This document shows, one piece after another, positions 2,912 to 64,000 of a stretch of 64,000 nucleotides of DNA. How positions within the stretch are numbered: the stretch's first letter is position 1; the number at the start of each line of letters is the position of its first letter. Origin of the DNA: Alloascoidea hylecoeti (Eukaryota); NCBI GenBank assembly GCA_001600815.1, contig BCKZ01000002.1:1496294-1560293 (forward strand). The letters are read 5' to 3'. The notes beneath the pieces were generated by a model. The model had not been told where the DNA came from. It saw only the letters and a list, made by a program, of their open reading frames with translations, and ran no database searches. The position numbers and the translations under genes are program-made.

Positions 2912-3480
2912 CTACGTCTCCGGACGAACCCGAACCCGAACCGAGGAACGTTTGACAGCCTCCATCAACTCTTTCCGGCCGGCCCTCTCAAGTTCAAACA
3001 AGGCTTCGTTGTAATCGCTCCATTTCCGTTGGCGTTTGTAGCTTTCGGGCCATTCATCTGCAACCTCCTTAACCTCCATCTCAAAAAAGTGGAACTCTGT
3101 TCTTGGTGGCCATCCATCTTCCCCAACCGGCCATTTTTTGGGCGGTCTCATGTCTTCAATTATACCCAGACTTTTGGTAATATTCCCCACAACTCCTGCT
3201 TCTTCCCATGTTTCTCTTTTAGCTGCTTTTTGATAATCATCCGATTCATCGGTTTCAATTCCACCCTTCGGAATGACCCATTGTCCTGGATGTGATTCCG
3301 ATGAGATCATTAATAATTTGGTCCTATCGCCGTTTAAAGATACCGTGCCAGCAACAAGTCTTGCCCCCGATTCAGCATAGGCTAATATATTAATGAGTGA
3401 TCACTTGTAATAATATAATATAATACCGTACCTTGATTTTCTCTTCCTTCTCTGGCGATTTTGGTCTTTTCGAATGGCAT
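2912..3480 (-). CDS. DDP1: Nudix diphosphoinositol-polyphosphate/Ap6A hydrolase, 2 exons (3480-3432, 3381-2912)
   Basis: Spliced N-terminus MPFEKTKIAREGRENQAYAESGARLVAG; 50-nt GTACGG...TAG intron; Nudix box GGIETDE...AAKRETWEEAGV. Confidence 0.92.
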
Positions 3481-3864
3481 TGAGATCTGTATACGCAATC
3501 AATCAGTTTACACAACTACAGGTACCGAATAATTATTAATTATGAATCATGTGGTCACGTGAGATAGCAGAACAAAGCATGAATGTTATATTCTAGATCT
3601 TATAATGATAGAAGGATATATGATTAATTTATTTGTATAGAATATCTATGATTTATCTCCTAATCATTAATCAATTGAAAACTAGTTTGGGTATATAAAA
3701 CGATCGATATCATGATATCGTAACGCTGGCACAAACAATAACGAAGCTTACAAGTATCTCTTTAAATATTCCTCTTTTTCTTTTTTTAAAAAACCGATAC
3801 TATTCACGATCAATAGTTATACGCGACATTTGTTCATCTAGGGACTTAAACCTAATGATATATA

Positions 3865-4033
3865 TAGTGATTCTACTTAATTTCGTCCATACTGATTTCT
3901 AAAGTTCGGATATCACTATAACTAAGTTTCGGGCACGAAATCAACCCATACCGGTAATAATGCAGCCGAAAATTGGTTATGAGGCTGACCGATCATTATT
4001 AGTCAAGATGGTCTAAATTAAGTAGAATAACTG
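3865..4033. mobile_element. MITE-like element with about 26-bp terminal inverted repeats
   Basis: Left end TAGTGATTCTACTTAATTTCGTCCAT; reverse complement of right end CAGTTATTCTACTTAATTTAGACCAT; non-coding; ends related to 26720-26973. Confidence 0.65.
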
Positions 4034-5011
4034 TCTACCTTTTTAAATTCAGCTTATTATTATATGATGGTATACGTATCACGTATTCTATTTGTATACA
4101 CAAGCTCAGTTAAAATAGGGCAAGTGAGACATCATAATTATACTAATGAAGTAATTGTATTTAAATTTAAAGGTCATAATTGGAAATTTAAAATTTAAAG
4201 AGACCTTCAATCCCAATTCTCCGGTTGTGAACTGTCAAATTTAGGGAAACTAAATAGGTAGTAAGTACAGATATACGTGTAGCTATTAATCTGGTCTTCC
4301 GAAGGAATGAATTATCACAATTTCAGTTAGTTGACACCAATCAGTAGTAATGTTGTAATTTTCAAGCTATAACTTTTACCTATGACTTTGGACACACTGT
4401 ATATTTAGAATATATACCATACAGCTGTGAATAATCAATTGAAGTTGCAAAGATTACACGATTTATAATTAATTAACACAATCTTTCAAATCATGCTGGA
4501 TATTATCTAGAATGGAAGGCATAGTTATAGAAACAGTATATACAGTATATATATATATTAATAGTAACCTTTGAAGAGAAAATAAATAAACTAAATACAC
4601 TTCAAGAACTTCTATAATTATAGCTAGAAAATATAATACTAAATACATAACATTCATAATATTTGTTAAAAGAATTTCATGTATCAATGACATAATACTA
4701 AAACAGGTAATATTGCATTTTTACATACCCCCCATAATTTCCAAGTTTACCCTATGCATGACGTTAGGTACATACCTGCATATAATTTGGTTTGTGTTTG
4801 TGTCAAATTAAACACATGAATATATTTGGCTATAAATACACAAACACTCTTCTATTTTTTATTTATTTATTTATTTATTTAATTTGCAGACATCCCACAA
4901 ACTCGAGATCTATTATTAATAAATTTTATAACATATTATTATAACAAATTAAATTCAAAAAAGAAAAGATATATCATAATATATAATTGCAAGATATATC
5001 ATACAGCTGAA

Positions 5012-5876
5012 ATGATTGAAGTTAACTATAATGATATTAATTCCTCAAATTCAAAATTCAGTAAATCTATACAGATTCCTTCAATTATACAAAATGAAAC
5101 AGATCACGAAGAAATCAATCAATCAGATCTTAACATTAAGATGATTTGTAAAGATTGTAAAATATCTCCCCCTTGTTTCGTTGATAGATTTAGTGATGGC
5201 GATGTTGTATGCGCTTTTTGTGGGCTTGTTGTTTGCAATGGGGGAATTTATGGTTATTCTTATCAAAATGAATTTGAAGAACTTGAAAATAATCATCATA
5301 AAATTGATGAAGATTTTATTTCTAAATCTATTGATGGATCTATATTAGATGCTAGATCAAATTTTCTTGATCTATATGACAATTGTGGGATTACAAATGA
5401 TGGTGATGATGATGATAACAATGACGATGAGGATGAGATCCAGAAACTTAAAAGATACACAAATTCCTCGGGATCAGAGTCAATTTCAATTGTTAATGAT
5501 CATGATGATCAACTAAAAGTAAGAAATTGTCTTCTTTAAATTGTAGTCAGTGTTGAATATTAAGCGCTGTGACTATAGTCTATGTGTGATCCGCTTATTG
5601 CAGACCATGAAATTAAACATACTAACGCCAATATTTTTTTTCAAATAGGAACCTCAAAATGATAATGATATTGAACTTGAGGAACTTAATAAAACACAAA
5701 TAAAACCTGCTACAAACTTAGGCCTAAAATCAAAACTCCATGGGATATCAGCTTTATTGAGTAAGAAGTTTTTAATTCCTTCGAAGTCTAAAAGGAATAA
5801 AATCTCCAAAGAAGATGATGGTTATTTACATGGATTAAGACTTAAAAAATCTGGATTGGTAGGTGTTAATAGTTAG
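5012..5876 (+). CDS. TFIIB zinc-ribbon-only protein, about 244 aa, 2 exons (5012-5518, 5649-5876)
   Basis: [36 protein letters not shown] matches the Sua7/TFIIB ribbon. Intron GTAAGA...TACTAAC...TAG keeps the frame into a 75-residue exon 2. No cyclin repeats. Confidence 0.75.
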
Positions 5877-8789
5877 AGTTCGAGAAACTTTATATTGGAT
5901 AATGAGTTGGATGCTTGAATGAATTATGAGTTAGAATTATTTACTATGTTTAGAGAGCTTGGGCAACGTTGACACTCAATGGTTATATAATATATGGTAT
6001 AATATTGCTTAGCGCTTATGATCTTAGGCATTATTAGCCGATAAAAATTGTTTATTTTTATGTTATAATTAAAATTTCCCTATATAATTAGTTCCCAAAA
6101 TCATTGGAGTGTATTAGATATTCGTATACAAGCTGTAACTTCATGAGATGTTGTAAAATCTGTCTTGTAACTTGTATACACATTTTTTTTATATTCTTGA
6201 ATTTTTATTGTGCTTTATAGTGACATGATTTCAATTAACCTCGATCCAAACAAATGATATCAATATGGGGAAACCAAATAATGTGATTTTGTAAGATGAA
6301 TTCCCTGTTTCAATAATATATCTTCGCGTTTATAGATCTATAAGATATGATTGTCGTGATTTGAGTGCTTTTATTTCCCCAAATTGCATCATTATAAGGC
6401 TTAAAGTTTATTTTAAGATTTGATGAAAATATATAAGTTATTTTGATTACTGAAGGATTATGCTCTATCTAAATCTTGATCTTAGAAAATAGCATATAAT
6501 TGAAAGAAAAAGTAATTACAGCACATACTTTATGCATACAATTTATTACAATTATCTGGAAAGATGATGAATGAAGAGGATCAGATCCTAAAAGAATAAT
6601 TAAATAAGTAAATTTCCATGTGTAGCTACATAATTATAGAGAATTCATTCAATATTTTCACTTATAAATTCTACCTCTAAGCTCCCAATTTCAAATTTGA
6701 TTTTTCAAGATTTTCTTTATAGAAGGAGGACCTATTAGGGTTCTTTTAAAGAAATATCAACTAGTTATAAAACTAAAAACTTAAGAAAGAAAAACCATTT
6801 ATATAATCAAAAATGATTAACCCTGAATTCAGTTAGACTTGAGCTAAAATATCAAGGGATAACAGTTACTGTGAGGTAAGCAAACTTCCATATCCTCTGC
6901 TGAAATACTGTATGCATCGTATCAATGTTAGAGCTTAAATTTAAATTTACTTCCTATATTTGCTGAGATTTTAGTGGATCTGCAATTGAAGTATGCTTTA
7001 TTAGGTTTCGGAATATCCTGTATGCTTAAAATTACTTCTAGTTCAAATTGATAACCCAATGAAATAACTGGCTACGATAATTAAAGAAATAGATAAGAGT
7101 ACTATCAGAATGTTGTATGTAAGAAAAAAGGGATTTCTTGATTTTCAGTTTAGGGAGCTAATATGTATAACATATGCACGTTAAATAATCATTTCGAATA
7201 AACTTAAACAAAAATCATAATTATAAAAACAAATTCACGATTTCTTGTCGATTGCTTTTGAATATACATCCAACATAATATAAAGGATTTCATGAGATTT
7301 TGGTAATTCCTTATTCTTTCGTAGCCAAATTATAATTATAACCAGGTATTAAATACGAGGAGTGTTGAATTCAGGTTGGGAGGAGGGTAAGATGTCAGCG
7401 GAGAAGACAGGCTAGCTTGAAATTGGGAAGACACAGCTTGGGGAGTGGAAGGATGAAATGAGGAACTGGCGTACTTTTTGCAGGGGGGTTTGCTAAAGTT
7501 GTTACATGTAGATATTTGAGTGAGAATTTTGGAACAATAATCAAGTTTTTGGCAAAAAATGGTAAATAAATGAAGGAAATATGGAACACGAGATATTTAT
7601 ACATAATAAATAATTTTGCAATAGGGAAGCCCAATATTAATATGTTTTCAGAAGCATAATATACACAAAAACAACGCTAGTTCGAGAAAGTTCTAGATTT
7701 AATTCTAGTATTATAATGAAGAACTTCAACTTCAACTGTATAACCTTATAAGGCCTACTCATAATACATAAATACTGGTATTTATATTAATGGCATAATT
7801 TTATCAATAAAAGACAGATGGCAACTGAACAAGCTTTCCAAAATCAAAATAAATAAGTTGGAGATGATATGACATCTTGGAGTTCAGAGTATACCACATA
7901 TCCCATCAAACCTTAAATTAATGACTGTCGTTCATATTTTATATTTAATAAACGAGAATTCCCCTTTTTTTTCAAATCATTGTTCTTTTAACTTATTAAA
8001 AAAAATTACTATTACTATGTTACAGATTATTTTCAAAGCCAAATAATCCCCTGTGGCTGCATCTACATTTTATTCTAATATTAATTCTGATGAAGATGAT
8101 TCACAATCTCCTGTAACTCTGTCCATGCTGAGCTCAGCTCTAAAAGTATGTCCGAAAATATTTTGAAATCAATAAAATATATTGCAGCTGATGAGAAATT
8201 GCGCCATAGATGGTGTATCAAGAATATTCAAATTCCCCGCAAAAGAGTTATATTTTTTGATCAAATAAGTTTTATAGTTTTTGTTTATCTCTAATATATA
8301 TATTATACATCGAAATTGTTATTAATGTAATTCAAATACATATATGGTACGTAATGATCAACTTTACATCTTTAAGAATTGTATTTGACTCTCTCTCATT
8401 ATCTAAACTTAACAATTCGTATCAAGAGTGATACTCGGGAGAATACGAAACTAAACTATACTGATTAGTTTTTAGATTTACAATTATTTTCACAGTTGTA
8501 ATCTTAAACTCCAGAATCCAAAATTTGTGTTCTATAAGGTAGCTATAGTTATCGATATCTAATAACAAAGAAATTAGATAAATATAACTTCGAAAACCAA
8601 ATGTGATCCTTGGTTTACATATCAGAGTTATAATCCCATGAAACCATCTGGAGTAGGAACGTATAGTGATGACTTTTCAGCAAAGATGACAGTCTAATAT
8701 ATAATGTTACTTTTTTACCCAAATATTTTGTCGCGCGTTAGAATCGAACTCAGGTCAACTTTACATATAATTTCTAATAAAGATATTTA

Positions 8790-9160
8790 AATAATTTAAA
8801 TCTTCTAACTAAAAACTATTGAATTGAGGAAATCACTCAAAGAATATAAAACCCCACTTCTTCTTTATTTCTCTTTTGTTTTCTCTTTCTGTATTCTCAT
8901 ATTCATTGTATCTCTTTTTCTTATGATCATGTTATTTTATTTCTATTTTTATTTTTATTTATGGTGATCCTCCAAATTTGATGCTTCTTCTAACTTTCAG
9001 TACCTTTGAGATGAAGAGGCCTTTCTTTTTTATATTTTTTCCATCTCTATCTCTATTTATCATCAGATTTTTGATATCTATTGTTTCTAGTATTTTCTCT
9101 TTTAGTATTTTCACTGTATTACACTTTTCAAAAATATGATTAATATATTATTTTTCCCAA
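8790..9160 (-). mobile_element. Decayed 3' fragment of an L1-like non-LTR retrotransposon ORF2
   Basis: Minus strand reads YINHIFEKCNTVKILKEK...KVLKVRRSIKFGG, resembling the zf-RVT HxFxxC end and the IWxxRNxxxF motif. It then reads ...SDFLNSIVFS*, similar to the younger copies; stops and a frameshift are present. Confidence 0.55.
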
Positions 9161-9161
9161 A

Positions 9162-9317
9162 TTTTTTTTAACTTTTCATATATTTTCTAATTAGATTATA
9201 TAACTAGAAACTATGTAAATCCTGAGGAAATCTCCACTATATATAATGAAATAAAAACCTCTGTTTCTATTCTTCTTATTTTTGTGTGTTCTTGCCACTC
9301 TTCTTTCTTCTCTTATG
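9162..9317 (-). mobile_element. Poly(A)-tailed 5'-truncated retroposon fragment, copy 1, upstream of tRNA-Glu
   Basis: Near-identical to 48846-49007. Minus strand is open (IREERRVARTHKNKKNRNRGFYFIIYSGDFLRIYIVSSYII*), then a short UTR and an A-run. Confidence 0.7.
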
Positions 9318-9393
9318 AACCTAGACCACCAAAAGGTAGTAAGACAACATGAATATGTCCTATTTAATCACGTGAAGAGTCCTTCAGAAAATT

Positions 9394-9465
9394 TCCGATG
9401 TAGTGTAACGGCTAGCACGGTCCGCTTTCACCGGGCAGTTCGGGGTTCGATTCCCCGCATCGGAG
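9394..9465 (+). tRNA. tRNA-Glu (anticodon TTC)
   Basis: TCCGATGTAGTGTAACGG...CTTTCAC...GGTTCGATTCCCCGCATCGGAG; paired acceptor stem; T-rich terminator follows. Confidence 0.97.
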
Positions 9466-10136
9466 TTTCTTTTTGTTTTTTCCTGAACCCTTGAATGCCG
9501 AGTACGCCAAAAAGTGCTCTATTTTTTAATCTCCTATAAATTGATATAATTTATAATAAAATGACAAGGTATAAAAATAATGTGATGCTTAATAAGGCCT
9601 GGGAAGCTACTACACCAAGAAGTGTTTAAATTTCAAAACAAATTTTAAACGTTAACCATAGCTTGCACGCACTAACACACACGAAAGAAGAACTGAGTAC
9701 AGTGTAGCGGCTTATTTATATAGTAGATATAAATGTATAGGTAGATCAAGTGCTTGTAATAGGGTCAACTCCGGATATAGCTAGCGATCGGTAAAAGTGT
9801 GTCCAACAACAGGTGATCGATCAATTTACCAGCACTATTGGAAATTTATAATCAAATACAGCTAAGAGCCGACGTTCATATTAATTTTACATCTTAATAC
9901 TCACAGGATCCTGTTAGAAGTTAACAAATTATTACAAATTCTTTATAATTAATTAGTCAGATAACGTCCTACGTATCACGTGCATATTAGAATAAATGTG
10001 TTCTATTTTGTGAAGAAGTAACCTCCTGAATAACCCTCTTACTTATCAATTGCAATTGATCAATTGATTATTCCGTTCATATACTTCCATTTCAAGACTC
10101 AACTTAAAATTCTAATTGCAACTACTTTTAATTCTG

Positions 10137-19479: not shown

Positions 19480-21773
19480 TTAATTTCCTTTCTTCTCAGC
19501 TTCAAGTACTTTAATCAATTCCTCACCATCCTTACCTGTTTTAACCCTAATAACATAGGTATCAATTCCATCTTTTGTAAAACAGGGTATACGAACCATT
19601 TCATTCTTACCTTTCTGAACAGGTCCATAATTAATTTTATCATTTAAAGAAAAGTTAATTAAAACTCTACCTGCTCCATCACTCCTTACTAAAACTCTTG
19701 TTTTTTTAGTTTCTTTATGTTTTAAAACTTTTAACATCCCTACTCCTAAAACAGTATATGGCGACTTTTTATCTTCTGCGTTAAAATTGTAAATCTTGGC
19801 TTTTTTCTCATATTTGATTTCTTCATTTTCTTCTCCTGGTCCTTGTTCGGTTGAAAAGTCTTTTTGTTGCGAATCAGTATGAGTAGTAATTGATTCAGTC
19901 TTGTTATTATTGTCTTCAGGTTTTGTGGCAGGTGTTCCGTTTGTAGGATTGGGTTTGAACGTATTAATAGAAAAAGCAGTTTTGGAAGAATTGGAAGAAA
20001 ATGGAGAATTTGAGTTTGAATTAAAAGAAAAAGGTTTATTAACATTATTAGTTGAATCAGGGGATTTAGTAGCATTTGAAAAACTGAAACCTGAAGATGA
20101 TCCTGAAGTACCAAACGATTTATTCCCACCAAAATTAAACACTGATGATGGTTTAGTGGTAGTGGTATTAGCCGCTGTTGCTGTTGCCAAAGCACTGTCA
20201 TTACTGGAATCCTTTTGTTCTGTTGTAGCTGGTTTTCCAAAAGATATTTTTTGACTAGGATTCCATGTAAAATCCTTTGCACCAAATGAAGATGACTTAT
20301 CATCATCATTTGTATCTGTTATTTTTGAGTCGTCAGTTGTTGATGTAGTAGCGGCTGAATTGAATGAGAATACAGATTTTGGTTTGGTATTATCATCAAC
20401 AGTAGTTGCTGTAGAAGAAGTAAATGAAAATGCAGGTTTCTGCGACGACAGCCCATTGAAAGAAAAGTTTGGTTTATTGTTACTGACAGAGTCATCTTTA
20501 GTAGATTTTTCAGGTCCAGTAGGCAAAGAAAATGCTGGTTTTGAAGAATCATTATTTTTTTCTGTATCATTCTTATTAGCATTAAAACTAAATGATTTTG
20601 GTCCTTCAGTTGTATCTTTTTTAACTACTTCTTCAGTTTTAAATTTAAATGGACTTTTGAAATTCTTTGGTTTATCTTCTACTTTAAAAACAAAACCTGG
20701 ACCGGAACCTGTAGTGGTATTTGAATTATCAGCTTTAGTAGATTTATTGAACACAAATGGAGAGTTTGTGGTTGTGGGAGGTTTATCAAGTGTAAATTGA
20801 GGACCTTTAACTTCAACTTCATCATCGCTTTCACTATCACTATCACTATCAACCTTAGCAACTGGTTTATTTTCCAATTTTGCAGGTTTAGTAACCTCAG
20901 GATTCTTTGGTTTTGTAACTGAACTAAAATTAAAAGTATTTGAATTTGAATTTGAACTCAAATTAGGTGTTAAGCTTTTAGAACTAAATATCGGCTTTTC
21001 TTTTTCTAACTTTTCTTTATGCTCAGAAGCTAAAGGTTTGAAATTAAAGGTGCTTGAAGAATGTGGTGGAGTAGATTGTTTTGATTCTTTTGCACCAAAA
21101 TTGAAAGTAGAAGTTGAAGTTGAAGTCGAAGCTGAAGTCGAAGTTGAAGTCGAAGTTGAAATTGGAGTTGTTGAACTTGGAAAACTTCCAACAATTGATT
21201 TTCGATAATTAATATATTTTTCACAAATTTTCAGCAAATCAACATCTTTATGTTTGTTAATAGCAGATATAATAGAATCTTTAAACTGTTCATTTAAAGC
21301 AACAAATTTAAGACCTTTTTCATTTTCTTTCTTCTCTTTATCATTGTTAGAGATAGCAAAATTTTTTGCTTTTGATGGTGATGGTGATGACGATGAAAAT
21401 GAATTCAAAGCTGGGTATAGAGGAGCTGATGATAAATTTGGTTTTGTTGTAGCAATAGGTTTCAATGATGAAAAACTTGAAGCAAAACTAAAACCTTTTT
21501 CTTTTGTTTTATCATCCGAGTCTGAAGACCCAGCACTATTTGATTTTTGTAATCTAGATCTTGGCATAATGATCCTTTTTGTTTTTGCATTTGATGGTTA
21601 GTACTAGTGGACAAATATATAGTTACATAAGAAACTTACTTTCTTTTAGCTAAGACAGAAGCATCAGCTTTTACAGGAATATCAGGAACGTCATCGTCAT
21701 TCGAATTTTCGTCAGCAAATGGCTGTTGATTGCTAATTTGGGAAGTAGCTCTTCTTTTAGCAGAAAATCCCAT
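19480..21773 (-). CDS. NUP2: Nucleoporin Nup2/Nup50, 2 exons (21773-21640, 21574-19480)
   Basis: Spliced N-terminus MGFSAKRRATSQI...VLAKRKIIMPR (NUP50 domain), FxF repeats and a C-terminal Ran-binding domain; intron GTAAGT...TACTAAC...AAG. Confidence 0.92.
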
Positions 21774-40335: not shown

Positions 40336-43211
40336 ATGGAACATAGCTATGAAGACGATGAGGAGGAGGAAGTTGTTTCTCACACCCATCCAGGATATGA
40401 TGATGAAGATGATGACGGAGAAGAATTAACCGATGATGAAGACGTTGGTTCAAGAGTATGTTTATACAATGATAAAAACAAGCCATCTGAGGGGTACTAA
40501 TCATTTTTCCAATTAATTAGAGAAGAAAAAAACAAAGAAAAGAACGAAGAAATCAATTTTTGGATGTTGAAGCTGAAGTAGATGAAGATGAAGAGGATTT
40601 TGAAGAGGATGAAGAAGAATTAGGAAAAATTGATGGTTTTATTCAAGACCAAAATTATGAAGACTCTGGTGCTCATGATGATCGATTGCATAGAGAAGTT
40701 GATCGAAGAAGGGATGCAATTCATGAAGAAGATGCTGAACGATTGGCAGATGAATATCGCGAAAAATATGGTCGTTCAGCCGTTTCTAAATATCGTGGGG
40801 ATTCAAATGTGGTATCCCAAAGATTATTACTACCTTCCGTTAATGACCCAAATATTTGGGGTGTCCGTTGCAAATATGGAAAGGAAAAGGAACTTGTCAG
40901 AGCCATTTTGAAAAAGAAAATTAGTTTACAGCATTCTGCAAAGCCTTTGGAAATATACTCATGTTTTCAAAGAGATGGTTTCAATGGATATATCTATATC
41001 GAAGCCAGGAGACCGGATGCTGTTGAATATGCTGTTAGAGGCTTAGTTAATGTCTACATTCAGAACAAAATCATGGTCCCGGTTAAAGAATATACCGATT
41101 TACTTCGGGCTGTGAAAAGAAATGATGTGGAGCTTGTCCCTGGAACTTACGTTAGAGTTAAACGTGGTAAATATACAGGTGATTTAGCAGTTGTTGAAAA
41201 CTTATCTGAAAATGGTCTAGAGGCACAATTACGATTAATGCCACGTTTAGATTATGGTAAATTTAATAACGATGAAAATGGAATCGATGGTGAGAAAAGA
41301 AAAAGACCAACACATAATGCAAAAGTTCGTCCACAACAAAGGCTATTTTCTGAACAAGAAGCTTCACAATATGATTTAAAAAATTTACAACGACGTGGCC
41401 GAAATTCTTTTTATTATAAATCTGATCTATATGAAAATGGATATCTAATTAAAGATTTTAAAATAACCTTTTTAGAAACAAAAGATGTTAATCCACGGTT
41501 AGAAGAACTGACAAAAATAAATTCTACTACAGATGAAGGTATTGATCTACAATCATTAGCACACTCTTTGAAACAATCTTCAAGTGCTGTTACTTTCCAG
41601 CCAGGTGAAAAAGTTTCGGTCGTAAGTGGTGAACAGAATGGTCTACATGGTCGTGTTTATTCATCCCAGGCTGATATCGTTACAATAATTGTTGACTCTC
41701 CAGAATTGAAAGGTAAAAAAATTGATATACCAATGGTTAATTTACGGAAAATGTTCAGAGTTGGTGATCACGTTAGAGTTATTAGTGGTAAACATAAAGA
41801 TGATACTGGTCTTGTTCTTGAAATTGCTAACGATCAAATCATATTTGTTAGTGATCTATCACAGAATGAAATCACAGTATTTTCCAATTATTTGGTTGAA
41901 GCTTCTGATTCAGGTGGTATCAATTCCGTAGGTCAATACGAACTTCATGATTTGGTACAACTTAGTTCCCAGTTAGTCGGATGTATCGTTAAAGCAGAAC
42001 GAGAGGCATTCACAGTCTTATGCCAAGATGGAGCTTTGAAAACGGTTGCTCCAACATCAATCTCTTTCAAAATCGATAAAAACAAAGAATCGTTTGCAAC
42101 TGATAGAAGTGGATCAGATATTCGAGTGGGTGACACAGTCAAAGAGATTTCTGGAGAACGAAGACAGGGCGTTATTTTACATATCTACCGATCTTCATTA
42201 TTTCTTCATTCCCGAACAATCACAGAAAACTTAGGTGTATTTGTCACAGATACATCCAAAGTTAATACGATAGCAGCAAAAGGTGCCCGTATTGCCAGTT
42301 CTGGACCCGATTTAAATAAAATGAATCCTAAACTTCAAATTAATCAGGGTAATATGGGAGCACCAATGAATATTCCTAGACAGGGTGGCAGGGATCGTAC
42401 ATTGAATCAGCATGTTGTTGTTCGTTTAGGTCCTTATAAAGGTATGAAAGGCATTGTTAAAGACGCTTCTGATGCAGTTGCAAGAGTCGAATTGCATTCC
42501 AAAAACAGAATCATCAGCATCAACAAAGAAAAACTGTCATTTTTGGATCCTAATGGTAAATTATTAAGTTATGAAGAATTTGTTGTTCCAAGAAGGGGAA
42601 TGAGAGACACTAGTGTTGCTTTAACTCAATTCAATGGAAGTGCGACACCTTCTTGGGGTGGATTCGGTGGTAATGGAGGAGGTAAAACTCCAGCTTGGGC
42701 TACGAGTGGTGGTAAAACTCCGGCTTGGGCATCTGGTGGCAGGACCCCAGCTTTTGGCTCTGGAGGGAGAACCCCAGCTTTCAACGCTGGAGGTCGCACT
42801 CCTGCTTTCAACTCTGGTAGTCGTACTCCTGCTTTTGGGAATGATGGGAGAACTCCTGCTTGGTCTTCTGGAGGTGGGAAAACACCTGTATGGTCATCAG
42901 GTGCTACTGGTCGTTCTTCGGCCTGGGAGCCTAACGTTAACTCAAGCTGGGATGCTGCTCCTAGCTCGCGATCAGGTGGTTCTTGGTATGACGCTAAAAC
43001 ACCGGGCTTTAATGAGGCTACTACACCAGGTATTCCCACACCTGGGATACCCACTCTTAGTGCGCCAACACCAGGTGCTTCCACATCTCCTGAATGGAGC
43101 GCTGCAACACCTGGAGTATTTGATGCAAAAACACCTGGTATTGCTCCTACACCGGCTGCTTGGAACCCTGATGATGACGATGATGTTCATTATGTCCCAG
43201 ATACCCCTTAA
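40336..43211 (+). CDS. SPT5: Transcription elongation factor Spt5, 2 exons (40336-40455, 40521-43211)
   Basis: Acidic N-terminus, FLDVEAEVD, NGN domain LLLPSVNDPNIWGVRC, KOW motifs and GGRTPAW repeats; in-frame GTATGT...TACTAAT...TAG intron. Confidence 0.95.
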
Positions 43212-48598: not shown

Positions 48599-49073
48599 TG
48601 TAAAGTAACTGGCAGAATCAGTTACAATGGCTTATTAAGACGAAGCTGATATGTATTAGATCTCGTGAATTAAGTTATCTATTAAAGGAGGGACTTATCT
48701 TAGCTTTATATAAATAAATCCAAAATATATTTATAGAATAGTCAAAAGAAGTATTAAATGTAAAAAAGAACTAATAATGTCCTTTTCGAAGTTTCAAATG
48801 TAAACAAGAAATTTAAGAATATAATAAGGACTAATAATGCAATAATTTTTTTTTTTAACTTTTCATATATTTTCCAATTAAATTATATAACTAGAAACTA
48901 TGTAAATTCTGAGGAAATCTCTACTATATATAGTGAAGTAAAAACCTCTCTTTCTATTCTTCTTATTTTTGTGTATTCTTGACACTCTTCTTTCTTCCCT
49001 TCTTATGTATATATATGTTTTTTCTAGCTAAAGAACTCATAACCAAGAATAGTCAACAATGAGTTCCCCTACA
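48599..49073 (-). mobile_element. Probable 5' LTR of the gypsy relic, interrupted by a retroposon fragment
   Basis: Minus strand TGTAGGGGAAC...GTTACTTTACA (TG..CA, imperfect inverted ends); TATATAAA at about 48705-48712. The outer boundary is inferred because there is no second LTR. Confidence 0.55.
48846..49007 (-). mobile_element. Poly(A)-tailed 5'-truncated retroposon fragment, copy 2, upstream of tRNA-Phe
   Basis: By hand alignment, 9 substitutions and one 3-nt indel versus 9162-9317; same open frame ending DFLRIYIVSSYII*; 11-nt A tail. Confidence 0.7.
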
Positions 49074-49085
49074 CGGCTCATACCA

Positions 49086-49092
49086 GCGGACT

Positions 49093-49134
<42 letters not shown>

Positions 49135-49158
49135 TGTGTTCGATCCACAGAGTTCGCA
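49086..49158 (+). tRNA. tRNA-Phe (anticodon GAA), intronless
   Basis: GCGGACTTAGCTCAGTTGGGAGAGCGTCAGACTGAAGATCTGAAGGTCCTGTGTTCGATCCACAGAGTTCGCA; T5 terminator follows. Confidence 0.98.
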
Positions 49159-55187: not shown

Positions 55188-56688
55188 ATGGACTTCCAAC
55201 AGTTTGACACATCTGGCTATGACTACCGGGATCTCCCGGACCCTTCAAATAAGAATGCTACTATTAGTTTAAACGATCATGATAATGACGAGTCACAAAT
55301 AGTTGAAGAAACGAATATAAACATAAACGATGACCATTCGAAAAATGGTAACGATGATAATGGTACCTATAATGAATTTTCGATCAAAATGTCAATACCA
55401 CCTCTTTCGGAATTAACATCTTTATATACTGATCATTCCGATACCACTAATAATAGCGATATGATAAATTCAAACCCAGTAACAAACATAAAACCAACAT
55501 CAAAAAGGAAGTTCCGTTTTAAACCTGAATTTGATAAAATGTTTCTGTCAAAAATATTAGAATTAGAACCTTTTTCAGCACGGTATGGAGAAACCAATAA
55601 AATGTGGGAATATTTTTCAAATGAATTTTATAAAAGTTTAATTGAGGAATTTGAAAATAATAGCAATAATAATAGTAATGATAACCTGCAAAATATCGTT
55701 AAACCCTATTATAGATTATGTCAAGATCATTTTAATGAATTATTAAGCCAAGTTCATAGTCATAATGAAAAGAAATTAAATAATAGTAGTAATAATAATG
55801 GTAATATTATCAACTATAAAGGGAAAGGGTCAAAAAGTTCAAAGATGGAGCAATTATTTAACGACCCTGAGATCGTCCAATTAGTTGCACAGATTGATGA
55901 AGTTGTAAGTATAATAATTTAATCAACTTTTCAAAAAAAAAAAAAAAAAAAAATAAGTATAAAACTAATCTTTTTTTTAGAGGAAACAACGGAAAGTTGA
56001 ATCTGAAAGAGCTAAAGAAGAACAAAAGTCAAAATTTTCAAAATACTCAAATTCAAAATCGAAACCTGTTCAAATACCGAGTTATTTACTTCATACTCAA
56101 AGTCAAGCACAATTACAATCAAGTATTAATGTAACTGATTCTAATACTAATAGTATTATTAGTGATATTGCTTATCCAGTATCTAAAAAGCAAAAGTTAT
56201 ATGATCCTAATTTAAATATTCATAAAACAAATACAATACCATCCTCATTTCAAAATATCGATTTTGATACTAATTTAGTATCACCAAATATAAACTCATC
56301 ACCAAGTTTAAAAACTAATTCTATTAATAATGATTCTAGTATTATCAATAATAAAATCAATGATTTTATATCGCAACAAAATAATCCATCTCCGATCATT
56401 GTTGATAAACTAAATGAAATTCTAAAAAATCAAACAAGTTTATTAACCAATTTATCAAGGATAAATGATGAAATATTTGAAAAACAAAATGAAAAATTCA
56501 TCAAAACGATTAATATTATAACACAGAATTTTAACACAACTTTAAGGGAATTTAGTGAATTTCAAGAAGAACGATTACAGAGGCAAAGTGAGATTATAAA
56601 AGAATCGGTTTCTTTGATTATTGATAATAAATTAAAAGAATATAGTATAGAAAAACACAATATAGATCATGATGATTTTAGTCCTTAA
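55188..56688 (+). CDS. Myb/SANT-like (trihelix) domain protein with a coiled-coil C-terminus, 2 exons (55188-55904, 55981-56688)
   Basis: RFKPEFDKMFLSKILELEPFSARYGETNKMWEYFS...CQDHFNELL; intron GTAAGT...ACTAAT...TAG; exon 2 is open for 235 residues. Confidence 0.7.
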
Positions 56689-57040: not shown

Positions 57041-58909
57041 ATGGGCTCAGATAGATTAATAGGCACATTATCCCGAATACAAGAAGGAGATGACAATGTT
57101 TCGGACTATCCAATAGCTGAATCAACTTTGCAATTGAATCATATGAATTCAAATGAAGTCTCAATAGACGAATGCCTTCTTAGTAATCTAAGGCAGCTAA
57201 ATTTGGTATCTAGATACGAAAATTCAGCACTTGAAAGTTATGATGAACGGCCTTCATCTTCTTTCTTAAGATTTGAAAAGAAACCTCAAAATAACCTAAT
57301 AAGTAAACATTTAACTGAAATATCCAGAAATTCTAGTGGATCTAGATCAAGTACCCCGGCCAAAGCTCTAAATTTAGAAGAGTTGCTTCTAAAACTTGTA
57401 TCATCTAGTGATATTGAATTACATAGTAATTCTATCGATGCAATTCAATCTTCAACAATTGATAATCAAAATTGGAAGAGTAGAAATTTGCCTACAGCCG
57501 AGAAGAGATATGGAATTTATAGTGGAAGAACACCAAGCTTAAACTCTTTTAAAGATGAAGAGGCCTCTCGCAACCATATTCTTACAAATTACGAACATCA
57601 CAAGAAGTTATATACGCTTCTATCAGAAACGATCAAAAATGAGATATACCCAGAACTAATCAACCTTCAAAGAAAGGTCGATGAGCTAAATAAATCGAGT
57701 TCAAGCGATGAATATGATTCAAGTAATAGTTATGAAAACGACGGTTCATTTGGTTCAACTTCCGACATGACTGTTCAAAGTACCTTGAATTCAACCCTCG
57801 ATTCAGAGATTTTACCTTTAGAAAGTGCCCAACCCCAAACAAATCTTAAATCAAATGATATAAACTTGAGATCAAATTCTTTTTGGGAGGGAAATAAGTC
57901 CGCTATGTATGAGATAGATCCTAATGAATGTAAAGATGATAATAATGATAAGTCATTAAATGATGGAGAGATCTCCAATAGCGGAATCGAACTAGATCTT
58001 CTTTCTCATAATCAAAAAGTTATTAAAGCGTTAATTGAAACTGAAGCGAATCGCGGCGAAACAGAACTTTACTCAACTGATATCGCAATTGATGATACAA
58101 TGGATGAGGTGAGGGACTCTGTGAAGAATCTATCAACCGAAGTGAATACAATATTCAAAAGGGTAAGTTTTAACTAATCAAAAATAAAATGTAAGTAGAA
58201 TTAAACTAACTACCTCATAATTATATAGTTGAGTCTTATTCGGTCTTTGGTGGAAGAAGACAATACTATTGTTTTACAGAAACTTAATCAACTATCTCCA
58301 CAGGTATTAAATGATGTACAACACCCAAGTATGAATATCACTCATAAAAATCAGACTTTAAGTGATCATGGCGATATGGATGGGACACATTTGCAAAATG
58401 AGTGAGTCAAATCTATTTTGTTTAATTGATTGCATAAATGAACTAATTTGATATTTAGGCCTCCAATCCCTCCCCCACATTTAGAGAAGTTTATAAATAA
58501 TCAAGATCGACACTTATTCTATGATAGTAGTACTTATAGCAGTGAACCTACTATTATTTCTCACGATATCATCAGATTACTCCCGAAACTTGACAAGTCC
58601 TTGCAATTGAAACCTCAATGTAATTCTATTGAATATGATCATTCTAGTTTCACTGATTTAAACACTGCCCCCAGAGCGTCTATAGCTAAAATAGATAAAA
58701 AGGTACAATTCCATGATCAACTCAAAACTTATCATGAGTATGTAAATGGAGTTTCTATGATCACACATGATAAACAGCCACAAAAGAAAAAGCCTATCAA
58801 GAAATTCTTTGGATTATTTAAGCATACACGAGAGATAACGCCAGTTATTGGCATTTCTAACAAGCAAGGTGATCTTCCTTTCATGGAATACAGTAATCAA
58901 AATAGATAA
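57041..58909 (+). CDS. Hypothetical Ser/acid-rich coiled-coil protein, 3 exons (57041-58162, 58229-58401, 58459-58909)
   Basis: Two introns (GTAAGT/ACTAAC/TAG and GTGAGT/ACTAAT/TAG) join the ORFs in frame. Confidence 0.72.
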
Positions 58910-62500: not shown

Positions 62501-64000
62501 AAGGAGTTATACCTGAATTTAACATTATTTTTGTTTCTGAACCAGTAAAAAGAACAACTCCAATAACCCATTTTGTATTTCTTAAAGTTGATCCACGTAA
62601 TAACAAATTATCAATTCCAATTGGTTCGGCAGAAACCTTCTCAGCATTAATATCGTTAGAATTCAAATTTCCATTAATATTATTAACCCATTTAAGAACA
62701 CCTTTAAAAGAGTACAAATCAGGTTTGGCACCTTCACATTCAATCCAAAACTTTAAATATTTAATACCTTGTATATGATTAATTTTTTTTTCAAAACATT
62801 TCATTGATTGTCTTGGTTTTAAGTTTGATTCTCCATCTAGATTTTTAGTTTCGGTATAACAAGTACCTTCAGTGTCATTACATGATAATATAAGTAAATC
62901 AGCGGGTATCTCATTATTGTTATTAATCAATAATATATCACCAACTTTTATATTTTTCCAATAATCTCTTTTAAACTTTATTTCTGCAGCTGCAGCTGGG
63001 GTTGTGGTAGTTTTCGATTTTGATTTTGATTTTGATCTTTTTAACTGTATTCTATTTACATCATCCATATTATAGTCATCAGGGGGTTGAAATTGATCAT
63101 ATGCATATGCATGTGGTACCATGAGTGTTTGTGATGAATTTAATTCAGAATCTATTCCTTTTAAAGACGTAATTGTATTCATTCTCATTAATTCAATGCC
63201 ATTTTCCTTTTCATTAATAATAGATCCAGGTGCCCTTCTATATTTTGTGCTTTTATTTGGATATGAACTCTTTTTAAATATTGAAGTAGATAGTCTTAGT
63301 AATTTAATCATAAATCTAGTAGTTGCCTTTTTGAACTTTCTCCATAATGAAACTTTATCTTCCTCAACATTTTGATTTAAGATGCCTTGCAATATATACA
63401 CAGAGGTATTATTCACTTCTGTATCACTTATTGTTCTCCTTGAGTCTTCAAGGGCATCTTTGATTCCTGTTATTGCTACAATGACGATTAGAGGAACAGC
63501 TGCTAGTACAGGTCCATCTACACCAAATAAAGCGAAAAACTAAATAATATCATCATATAAGTTTAAGTTAGTAAATGTATATATCATATTAATATCAGAT
63601 TTAAAGCATACCCCAAGAATTATACCAAATAGGAAATAAAGATTTGCAACATTATGAAACTGATAAATGAGATTTTTTGGGATAAATGATAAAGGAGTAT
63701 ATTTTGTAGTTCTTATTTTATTTCTTGGATATTCAACGTGTTTATAATCATTTTTTGGTAGTTCAGAGTTGATATAAATAGAACGATTTTGAGTGTTTAT
63801 GATATCAATAGGTCTTGAGATCCCAGGGAATTGTATATCATATAAGAAATATTGTAACTTCCATTTCCAATCTTTTTCATGAGAGAGAGGTTTCGGCTTA
63901 TTTTCTCTCTCTTGATCATGATTTTTGTTGTTAATTGTATTGATATGTGGCTGAATTAGAGAATCATGAGACCTGGTTCTATCTAGTCGGGAGAAAGTAC
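59526..64000 (-). CDS. DNF1: P4-ATPase lipid flippase Dnf1/Dnf2; 5' end outside the window; intron 63611-63540
   Basis: [30 protein letters not shown] and [15 protein letters not shown]...TACTAAC...TAG intron is in frame. Confidence 0.92.

Follow-up and report, generated by a model that had tools for sequence, protein, structure and literature searches.

A coding-like gene model for a ribbon-only TFIIB-related protein in the budding-yeast-like fungus Alloascoidea hylecoeti

We have analyzed a 64-kb stretch of the Alloascoidea hylecoeti genome (hereafter the window, to which all positions refer). A. hylecoeti is a budding-yeast-like fungus, and the window is AT-rich (~30% G+C). Its long ORFs encode domains of Sey1, dihydroxyacetone kinase, carnitine acyltransferase, Spt5, triosephosphate isomerase, a Zn2Cys6 factor and a P4-ATPase, among others. 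Near one end lies a two-exon gene model whose predicted product carries a zinc ribbon of the TFIIB (Sua7) type and lacks the other parts of TFIIB. In yeasts, TFIIB is a single-copy, essential factor that recruits Pol II by means of its ribbon, which acts as a handle. An intact, coding-like paralogue that retains the ribbon alone of TFIIB is an unusual find in a yeast.

The locus and its gene model

The ribbon gene is located between a minus-strand Nudix-hydrolase gene and a 3.5-kb ORF-poor stretch that ends at a tRNA-Glu gene (9393-9466). The Nudix gene (2912-3400, with a small upstream exon near 3437-3490 and the box GGIETDES...RETWEEAGV) is divergent from the ribbon gene, and its intron apparently lacks a TACTAAC branch point. 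Within the 1.5-kb intergenic region separating the two genes is an imperfect inverted repeat (3861-3932 and 3966-4037), with 72-nt arms that are 72% complementary and 33 nt apart. The same region contains a candidate TATA box, TATAAATA (4831-4838, plus strand), which is situated 181 bp upstream of the ATG and would serve the ribbon gene; it includes the only TATAAA within positions 4501-5012. A scan for bacterial-type promoters and terminators, which is not meaningful for a yeast, gave 15 sites against 15.9 expected. Downstream of the gene, positions 5877-9390 (~3.5 kb) contain no ORF longer than 93 aa and no Pfam match, and have codon scores of the noncoding type; this gap is unusually long given the compactness of the rest of the window. 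A 153-bp repeat occurs in two copies that are 93% identical (9162-9314 and 48849-49001), one directly upstream of tRNA-Glu and the other directly upstream of tRNA-Phe (49086-49158), the two tRNA genes that the window has. It could be a solo LTR or some other element associated with tRNA genes. A repeat search near the ribbon gene found no flanking duplication around it. One wood-decay metagenome run contains 0.88 of the sampled words of the stretch.

Exon 1 (5012-5518, plus strand) translates to 169 residues, and exon 2 (5649-5876, plus strand) to 75 residues followed by a TAG stop. The predicted spliced product thus has 244 residues, which bears out the two-exon product proposed in the first-pass annotation. 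The start at 5012 is the first in-frame ATG past a stop codon at 4880-4882. Without splicing, the frame stops at 5539 and yields a product of 175 aa, the form present in the public protein collection. The two exons were searched and folded as separate chains. Residues 1-38 (5012-5125, plus strand) form an Ile/Ser/Asn-rich leader with a net charge of -4 and a codon score of 0.358, for which a phmmer search of 1.84 billion protein representatives found no matching homologue.

The predicted intron (5519-5648, plus strand; 130 nt, phase 0) was recognized by its sequence signals: GTAAGA at 5519-5524, a TACTAAC branch point at 5620-5626, a T-run, and a closing TAG with its AG at 5647-5648. TACTAAC occurs seven times on the two strands of the window and three times near a GTA.G. 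site, namely in the target intron and in the introns of the RanBP1-domain gene (21575-21639) and the P4-ATPase gene (about 63540-63611, with the 5' site GTATGC at 63611), the latter two having been checked by eye. A script requiring coding-like ORFs on either side proposed three more short introns, one upstream of SPT5 (40456-40520) and one in each of two genes without a Pfam match (55905-55980 and 58163-58228). These five short introns join ORFs, so several ATG-to-stop ORFs of the window are incomplete gene models. Their lengths are 65-76 nt; three have GTAAGT as the 5' site and the others GTATGT or GTATGC, and the branch points are ACTAAC or ACTAAT. The target intron shares their layout, in which the branch point precedes the AG by 16-25 nt, but differs from them in the A at position 6 of its 5' site and in its length, which is about twice theirs. 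It had been described as canonical; judged by these signals, the intron is plausible, yet atypical for its surroundings. A further GTATGC, the hexamer of the P4-ATPase intron, is found at 5207-5212 inside ribbon codons (V-V-C-A) as an in-frame alternative 5' site. Splicing from 5207 to 5648 would remain in frame and give a 140-aa product with half a ribbon; no weight was given to this site, which may well be a coincidence.

To assess codon usage, a codon table was trained on 16 ORFs of the window that have Pfam support, and scores were taken relative to base composition. The per-codon score was 0.356 for exon 1 and 0.341 for exon 2, and windows of equal length from known genes averaged 0.338 (sd 0.121; 47 windows of 169 codons) and 0.334 (115 windows of 75 codons). 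Thirty-two stop-free stretches of 40 or more codons, taken from both flanks, ranged from -0.279 to 0.109. The remaining five frames of either exon scored 0.04 or less, and the other two frames of exon 2 scored -0.94 and -1.44. The acidic tail encoded by exon 1 scored 0.476 by itself, a value somewhat inflated because the tail is rich in Asp, Asn and Glu, whose codons are common in this AT-rich genome. There are zero CTG codons in the gene, so CUG reassignment is not an issue. Three features support the earlier claim that the locus is an intact, coding-like gene model and not debris: an open frame, typical codon usage in each of the two exons, and in-phase splice signals.

A competing account, which we consider somewhat unlikely, holds that the locus is a young, unselected copy of part of SUA7, its 5' end, that came to lie in a gene-poor region bearing repeats. 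Its frame would be open by chance, and it would have hardly any expression or function, if any at all (a proto-gene or incipient pseudogene). Its setting would suit this account, since the 3.5 kb without an ORF longer than 93 aa, the tRNA-Glu gene and the tRNA-associated 153-bp repeat all lie close by, as would the non-consensus 5' splice site. The length of the frame argues against it: at the stop frequency of the flanks (0.0755; 732 of 9692 codons), the chance of 168 open codons past the ribbon is 1.9e-6 and that of 75 open codons in exon 2 is 2.8e-3, and no flank frame is as long as 169 codons. The gene-like codon usage, found in both exons and in the correct frame only, is also difficult to reconcile with a frame left open by chance.

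The zinc ribbon and the parts behind it

Residues 39-76 (5126-5239, plus strand) constitute a TFIIB (Sua7)-type zinc ribbon, as identified by phmmer, alignment, AF2 and Foldseek. In a phmmer search of 177,635 PDB sequences, this segment aligned with residues 17-54 of yeast TFIIB/Sua7 at 45.6 bits (E 7.6e-11). With yeast TFIIB (PDB 3k7a_M, 3k1f_M, 7ui9_M and others), it shares 22 of 38 residues, the four Cys, the PP and GD motifs and a three-stranded fold. The presumed zinc ligands C46, C49, C67 and C70 all fall in invariant Cys columns of an alignment with 25 TFIIBs. Compared by eye with the same 25 proteins, all seven invariant ribbon columns are kept (C46, C49, G63, C67, C70, G71 and V73), as are three of the four nearly invariant ones (P53, P54 and D64), with Glu replaced by Asp at position 58. 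Two additional Cys, C55 and C75, are present. The sole Pfam family match was to PF08271 (Zn_Ribbon_TF), at 18.8 bits (E 0.0012) over model positions 1-29 of 43. This is under the gathering threshold of 29 bits, a shortfall that would fit an unselected duplicate, and the ribbon homology rests on the phmmer and Foldseek matches. When folded by AF2 with a TFIIB alignment, the ribbon had block pLDDT values of 75-87 and strands at residues 56-59, 64-67 and 73-75. The first 11 Foldseek matches in the PDB were all yeast TFIIB chains; the best E was only 2.6e-3, a value to be expected of a domain this small, and the match ranked eighth, 7ui9_M, superposed with an rmsd of 1.3 A over 34 columns. For the whole protein, ESM Atlas pointed to Zn_Ribbon_TF clusters (0.95).

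Unlike yeast TFIIB, the protein is without a B-reader, a B-linker and cyclin repeats, and carries a 38-residue leader, a 93-residue acidic tail and a 75-residue basic exon, all without relatives. It is not a TFIIB, as three of the four defining parts are missing. The acidic tail (residues 77-169; 5240-5518, plus strand) sits where the B-reader and B-linker would be, and has a net charge of -18 with 17 Asp. It is predicted by AF2 to be mostly disordered (block pLDDT 47-58 over residues 81-169), with short helices at 85-93, 119-125 and 140-150. An ESM Atlas search with the tail alone reached at most 0.82, which is to be read as a lead only. The protein encoded by exon 2 is basic (net charge +5) and includes a KSKRNK stretch. 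Single-sequence AF2 placed a helix at its residues 24-40 with a pLDDT of about 80, and exon 2 had no Pfam or PDB match. The helices that AF2 proposed in the separately folded exons span 7-17 residues at pLDDT 50-82.

The DTRSEWRTF B-reader is absent after GLVV, both by phmmer and in the alignment with 25 TFIIBs. A reader/linker profile built from these 25 proteins scored 0.2 bits against residues 75-169, and 266 of 1000 shuffles scored as high or higher; by eye, three of ten nearly invariant reader/linker columns are kept. A vestigial B-reader had been entertained, as BLAST alignments seemed colinear as far as TFIIB residue 102, and was ruled out by the comparison of the profile with shuffles. 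The sequence behind the ribbon was thus as the first-pass annotation had described it: a close Sua7-type ribbon with all four Cys, no B-reader past GLVV, then an acidic linker and a basic second exon.

That annotation had also found the cyclin core lacking, a view that downstream exons with cyclin repeats would have contradicted. No such exon was found in the 64 kb. When five TFIIBs were compared with the entire window by tblastn, only 5087-5371 matched; the next match, in acidic low-complexity sequence of the same gene, had an E of 0.022, and the others had an E of 0.066 or worse. No TFIIB-family match, including to the cyclin repeats (PF00382), was obtained in 19 ORFs of at least 45 aa between 5877 and 9494, and neither exon had a Pfam match to PF00382. 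Conceivably, the model was wrongly delimited and covers just the start of a complete TFIIB gene, or else one half of a split gene, the reader and cyclin repeats being encoded by other exons or another gene. TFIIB fragments of other fungi that end right past CGLV(V) do suggest that an intron lies near this point in those fungi. The tblastn result and the 19 flank ORFs largely refute such an arrangement within the window, and the frame itself continues through a coding-like tail to a stop, so we regard it as highly improbable.

Relatives and retention of the ribbon

Searches for a protein of the same architecture returned only the gene itself. A word-indexed search among proteins of 92-296 aa gave, from 16 candidates, just the 175-aa ORF of the window, and among longer proteins it gave 438 candidates with none at E <= 0.01. 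By phmmer against the 1.84 billion representatives, 63 proteins were recovered at E <= 1e-3, one of them the protein itself. The other 62 scored no higher than 45.7 bits and were matched essentially over the ribbon only; 61 were TFIIBs or TFIIB fragments, and one was a low-complexity match in a 1312-aa protein. The reader motif was present in 49 of the 61 TFIIB-type matches, two more were full-length with a variant reader, and the remaining ten were fragments, short or C-terminally cut, that end within ~30 residues of the ribbon. No match among the 62 combined a ribbon with a long non-TFIIB tail. In JGI metagenome contigs, 586 pattern matches led to no confirmed relative or related locus.

An orthologue was therefore found in none of the protein or metagenome searches, and the tail matched nothing in Pfam, phmmer, the reader/linker profile or the PDB. 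Both results would fit a young partial copy of SUA7. The weight of the first is reduced by a control: the Jac1-like co-chaperone encoded in the window (250 aa) retrieved itself and then six proteins that are 38-46% identical, some of them from filamentous fungi. The absence of an orthologue is weak evidence because this control shows that the searched collection holds no close relative of the yeast; even a housekeeping protein finds nothing above 46% identity.

The ribbon (residues 39-74) is identical to those of 25 TFIIBs at a mean fraction of 0.51 (0.44-0.58), and the corresponding mean for 300 TFIIB-TFIIB pairs is 0.58 (0.36-0.78). Over columns 75-120, the protein has a mean identity of 0.17 (0.09-0.22) to the 25 TFIIBs, against 0.52 among the 300 pairs. 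The ribbon is thus inside the conservation range of true TFIIBs, and the reader, normally equally conserved, is gone. Taken from these comparisons, the contrast could reflect purifying selection on the ribbon with the rest set free, or a recent copy broken directly behind the ribbon. A very young copy would have an intact ribbon without any selection. Neutral decay fits a ribbon kept at the level of orthologues beside an erased reader only if the breakpoint fell exactly behind the ribbon, and the recent-copy option needs an unrelated 168-codon tail that is coding-like for some other reason.

Many short 'proteins' in the database (P0004, P0006, P0027, P0029, P0035, P0051 and P0063) are TFIIB fragments that diverge right past CGLV(V/L). 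They likely result from gene callers that, in other fungi, read on past the ribbon exon into the intron behind it. Such an exon, carrying the ribbon by itself, would be easily copied as a module.

Possible roles and precedents

We give about even odds to the reading in which a TFIIB paralogue with only the ribbon, probably functional and confined to this lineage, is encoded here; it would be a copy of the SUA7 ribbon that docks on Pol II and is unable to initiate. According to this proposal, the 5' ribbon-coding part of the SUA7 gene of the yeast would have been copied and joined to an acidic tail, either unrelated to TFIIB or diverged beyond recognition, and to a basic C-terminal exon. The first-pass annotation had pictured a duplicated ribbon repurposed as a Pol II-binding adaptor or competitive inhibitor of initiation. 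The intact ribbon-only gene model in that picture holds up; the duplication, with SUA7 as the donor, is something we infer from similarity.

TFIIB-like factors in general contact the polymerase dock with the ribbon, and TBP and DNA with the cyclin folds (PMC7865254). In the initiation complex as described, Pol II is recruited through binding of the TFIIB ribbon near the RPB1 dock, the B-ribbon is in contact with Med18, and the opened strands are dealt with by the reader and linker (PMC7111264). The ribbon keeps every invariant TFIIB residue, and hence most likely still folds around zinc and binds the site of the TFIIB ribbon, which would be the dock domain of the largest Pol II subunit, adjoining the Med18 contact. 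Binding to the dock would then be an ancestral activity that has been retained. Having no B-reader, B-linker or cyclin core, the protein should neither bind TBP and DNA nor open promoters or set start sites. Since ribbons dock and cyclin folds bind TBP and DNA, a ribbon-only protein is expected at the dock and not at the promoter. On Pol II, it would either compete with TFIIB by occupying its site, thereby braking initiation, or serve as a tether or modulator through its charged tail; in the second case, the acidic tail (-18) and the basic exon-2 helix (+5) would be delivered to the polymerase. Nuclear import may be a function of the KSKRNK stretch. That the protein binds zinc, docks on Pol II and resides in the nucleus is presumed, as is the direction of any effect it has.

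The closest architectural precedents are AtBRP6 of Arabidopsis and the crenarchaeal factor TFB3, and these, the first uncharacterized and the second archaeal, are the only ribbon-only or ribbon-plus-linker relatives on record. Open-access full text yielded no fungal ribbon-only TFIIB paralogue. AtBRP6 (AT5G39230) is described as TFIIB-related, with a zinc ribbon and linker only, and its function is listed as unknown (PMC7865254). Like the A. hylecoeti protein, it is a eukaryotic TFIIB-like protein without the entire cyclin core; going by its description, the two are set apart by the linker, which is reported for AtBRP6 and is undetectable here (PMC7865254). The plant protein and the yeast protein presumably have independent origins. 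TFB3 is described as a truncated TFB, composed of a ribbon and a coiled coil, that is a working activator with an essential ribbon (PMC6101594). It shares with the target a four-Cys ribbon and a missing DNA-binding core, and cannot replace the general factor (PMC6101594). Its C-terminal coiled coil is essential for activation (PMC6101594); the helices that AF2 predicts here are short and of low confidence. An origin independent of TFB3 seems likely for the target because the best matches of its ribbon are fungal TFIIBs. As a precedent, TFB3 indicates that a truncated factor of this type can function (PMC6101594).

The ribbon might instead have been re-used for a partner other than the Pol II dock, such as the Mediator head (Med18/20), TFIIF, the TFIIB core or nucleic acid, with the acidic, hydrophobic-studded tail acting as an activation or competitor domain. 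We think this unlikely, as the conservation of all invariant ribbon columns makes the ancestral contact the simplest explanation. Departures from a typical ribbon are nevertheless present, in the two additional Cys (C55 and C75), the change of a conserved Glu to Asp at 58 and the unmatched positions 30-43 of the Pfam model, and they would be compatible with a new partner. So would the Med18 contact with the B-ribbon in the PIC (PMC7111264), and so would the account of TFB3 as an archaeal, DNA-damage-induced factor that activates together with TFB1/TBP complexes and is not a simple competitor (PMC6101594).

For a protein docking on Pol II, the effect could by analogy be of either sign, as TFB3 is described as activating (PMC6101594) and GDOWN1 as repressing (PMC13443923). 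More specifically, and as a tentative possibility, the protein may be a dedicated TFIIB decoy with the ribbon as its sole TFIIB part. It would be expressed and reside in the nucleus, its ribbon sitting on the Rpb1 dock or at the ribbon/Med18 interface and its acidic tail and basic helix blocking TFIIB or parking or tethering Pol II. If so, it would represent a global, tunable brake or switch on initiation and the first characterized eukaryotic counterpart of the archaeal TFB3-type truncated factors. A natural handle-only protein would provide a ready-made in vivo probe of ribbon-dock binding. It might also represent a new layer of control over initiation, and would show neatly how a new gene can arise from a single module of a general transcription factor. 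If it proved to be unexpressed, or private to the species and neutral, it would be an ordinary partial duplicate.

Other factors serve as analogies for the possible workings of a ribbon-only protein. GDOWN1 is described as blocking initiation through a clash with TFIIB and TFIIF on Pol II (PMC13443923); it is an analogy only, and is unrelated in sequence and not ribbon-only. Sulfolobus TFS4, a basal-factor paralogue turned inhibitor, is likewise only an analogy and not ribbon-only (PMC5715097). In Tetrahymena, Emit3 is described as a TFIIB paralogue in which most of the B-reader is missing and the cyclin core is kept (PMC12082453); with that core it is not ribbon-only, unlike the A. hylecoeti protein, which is without one.
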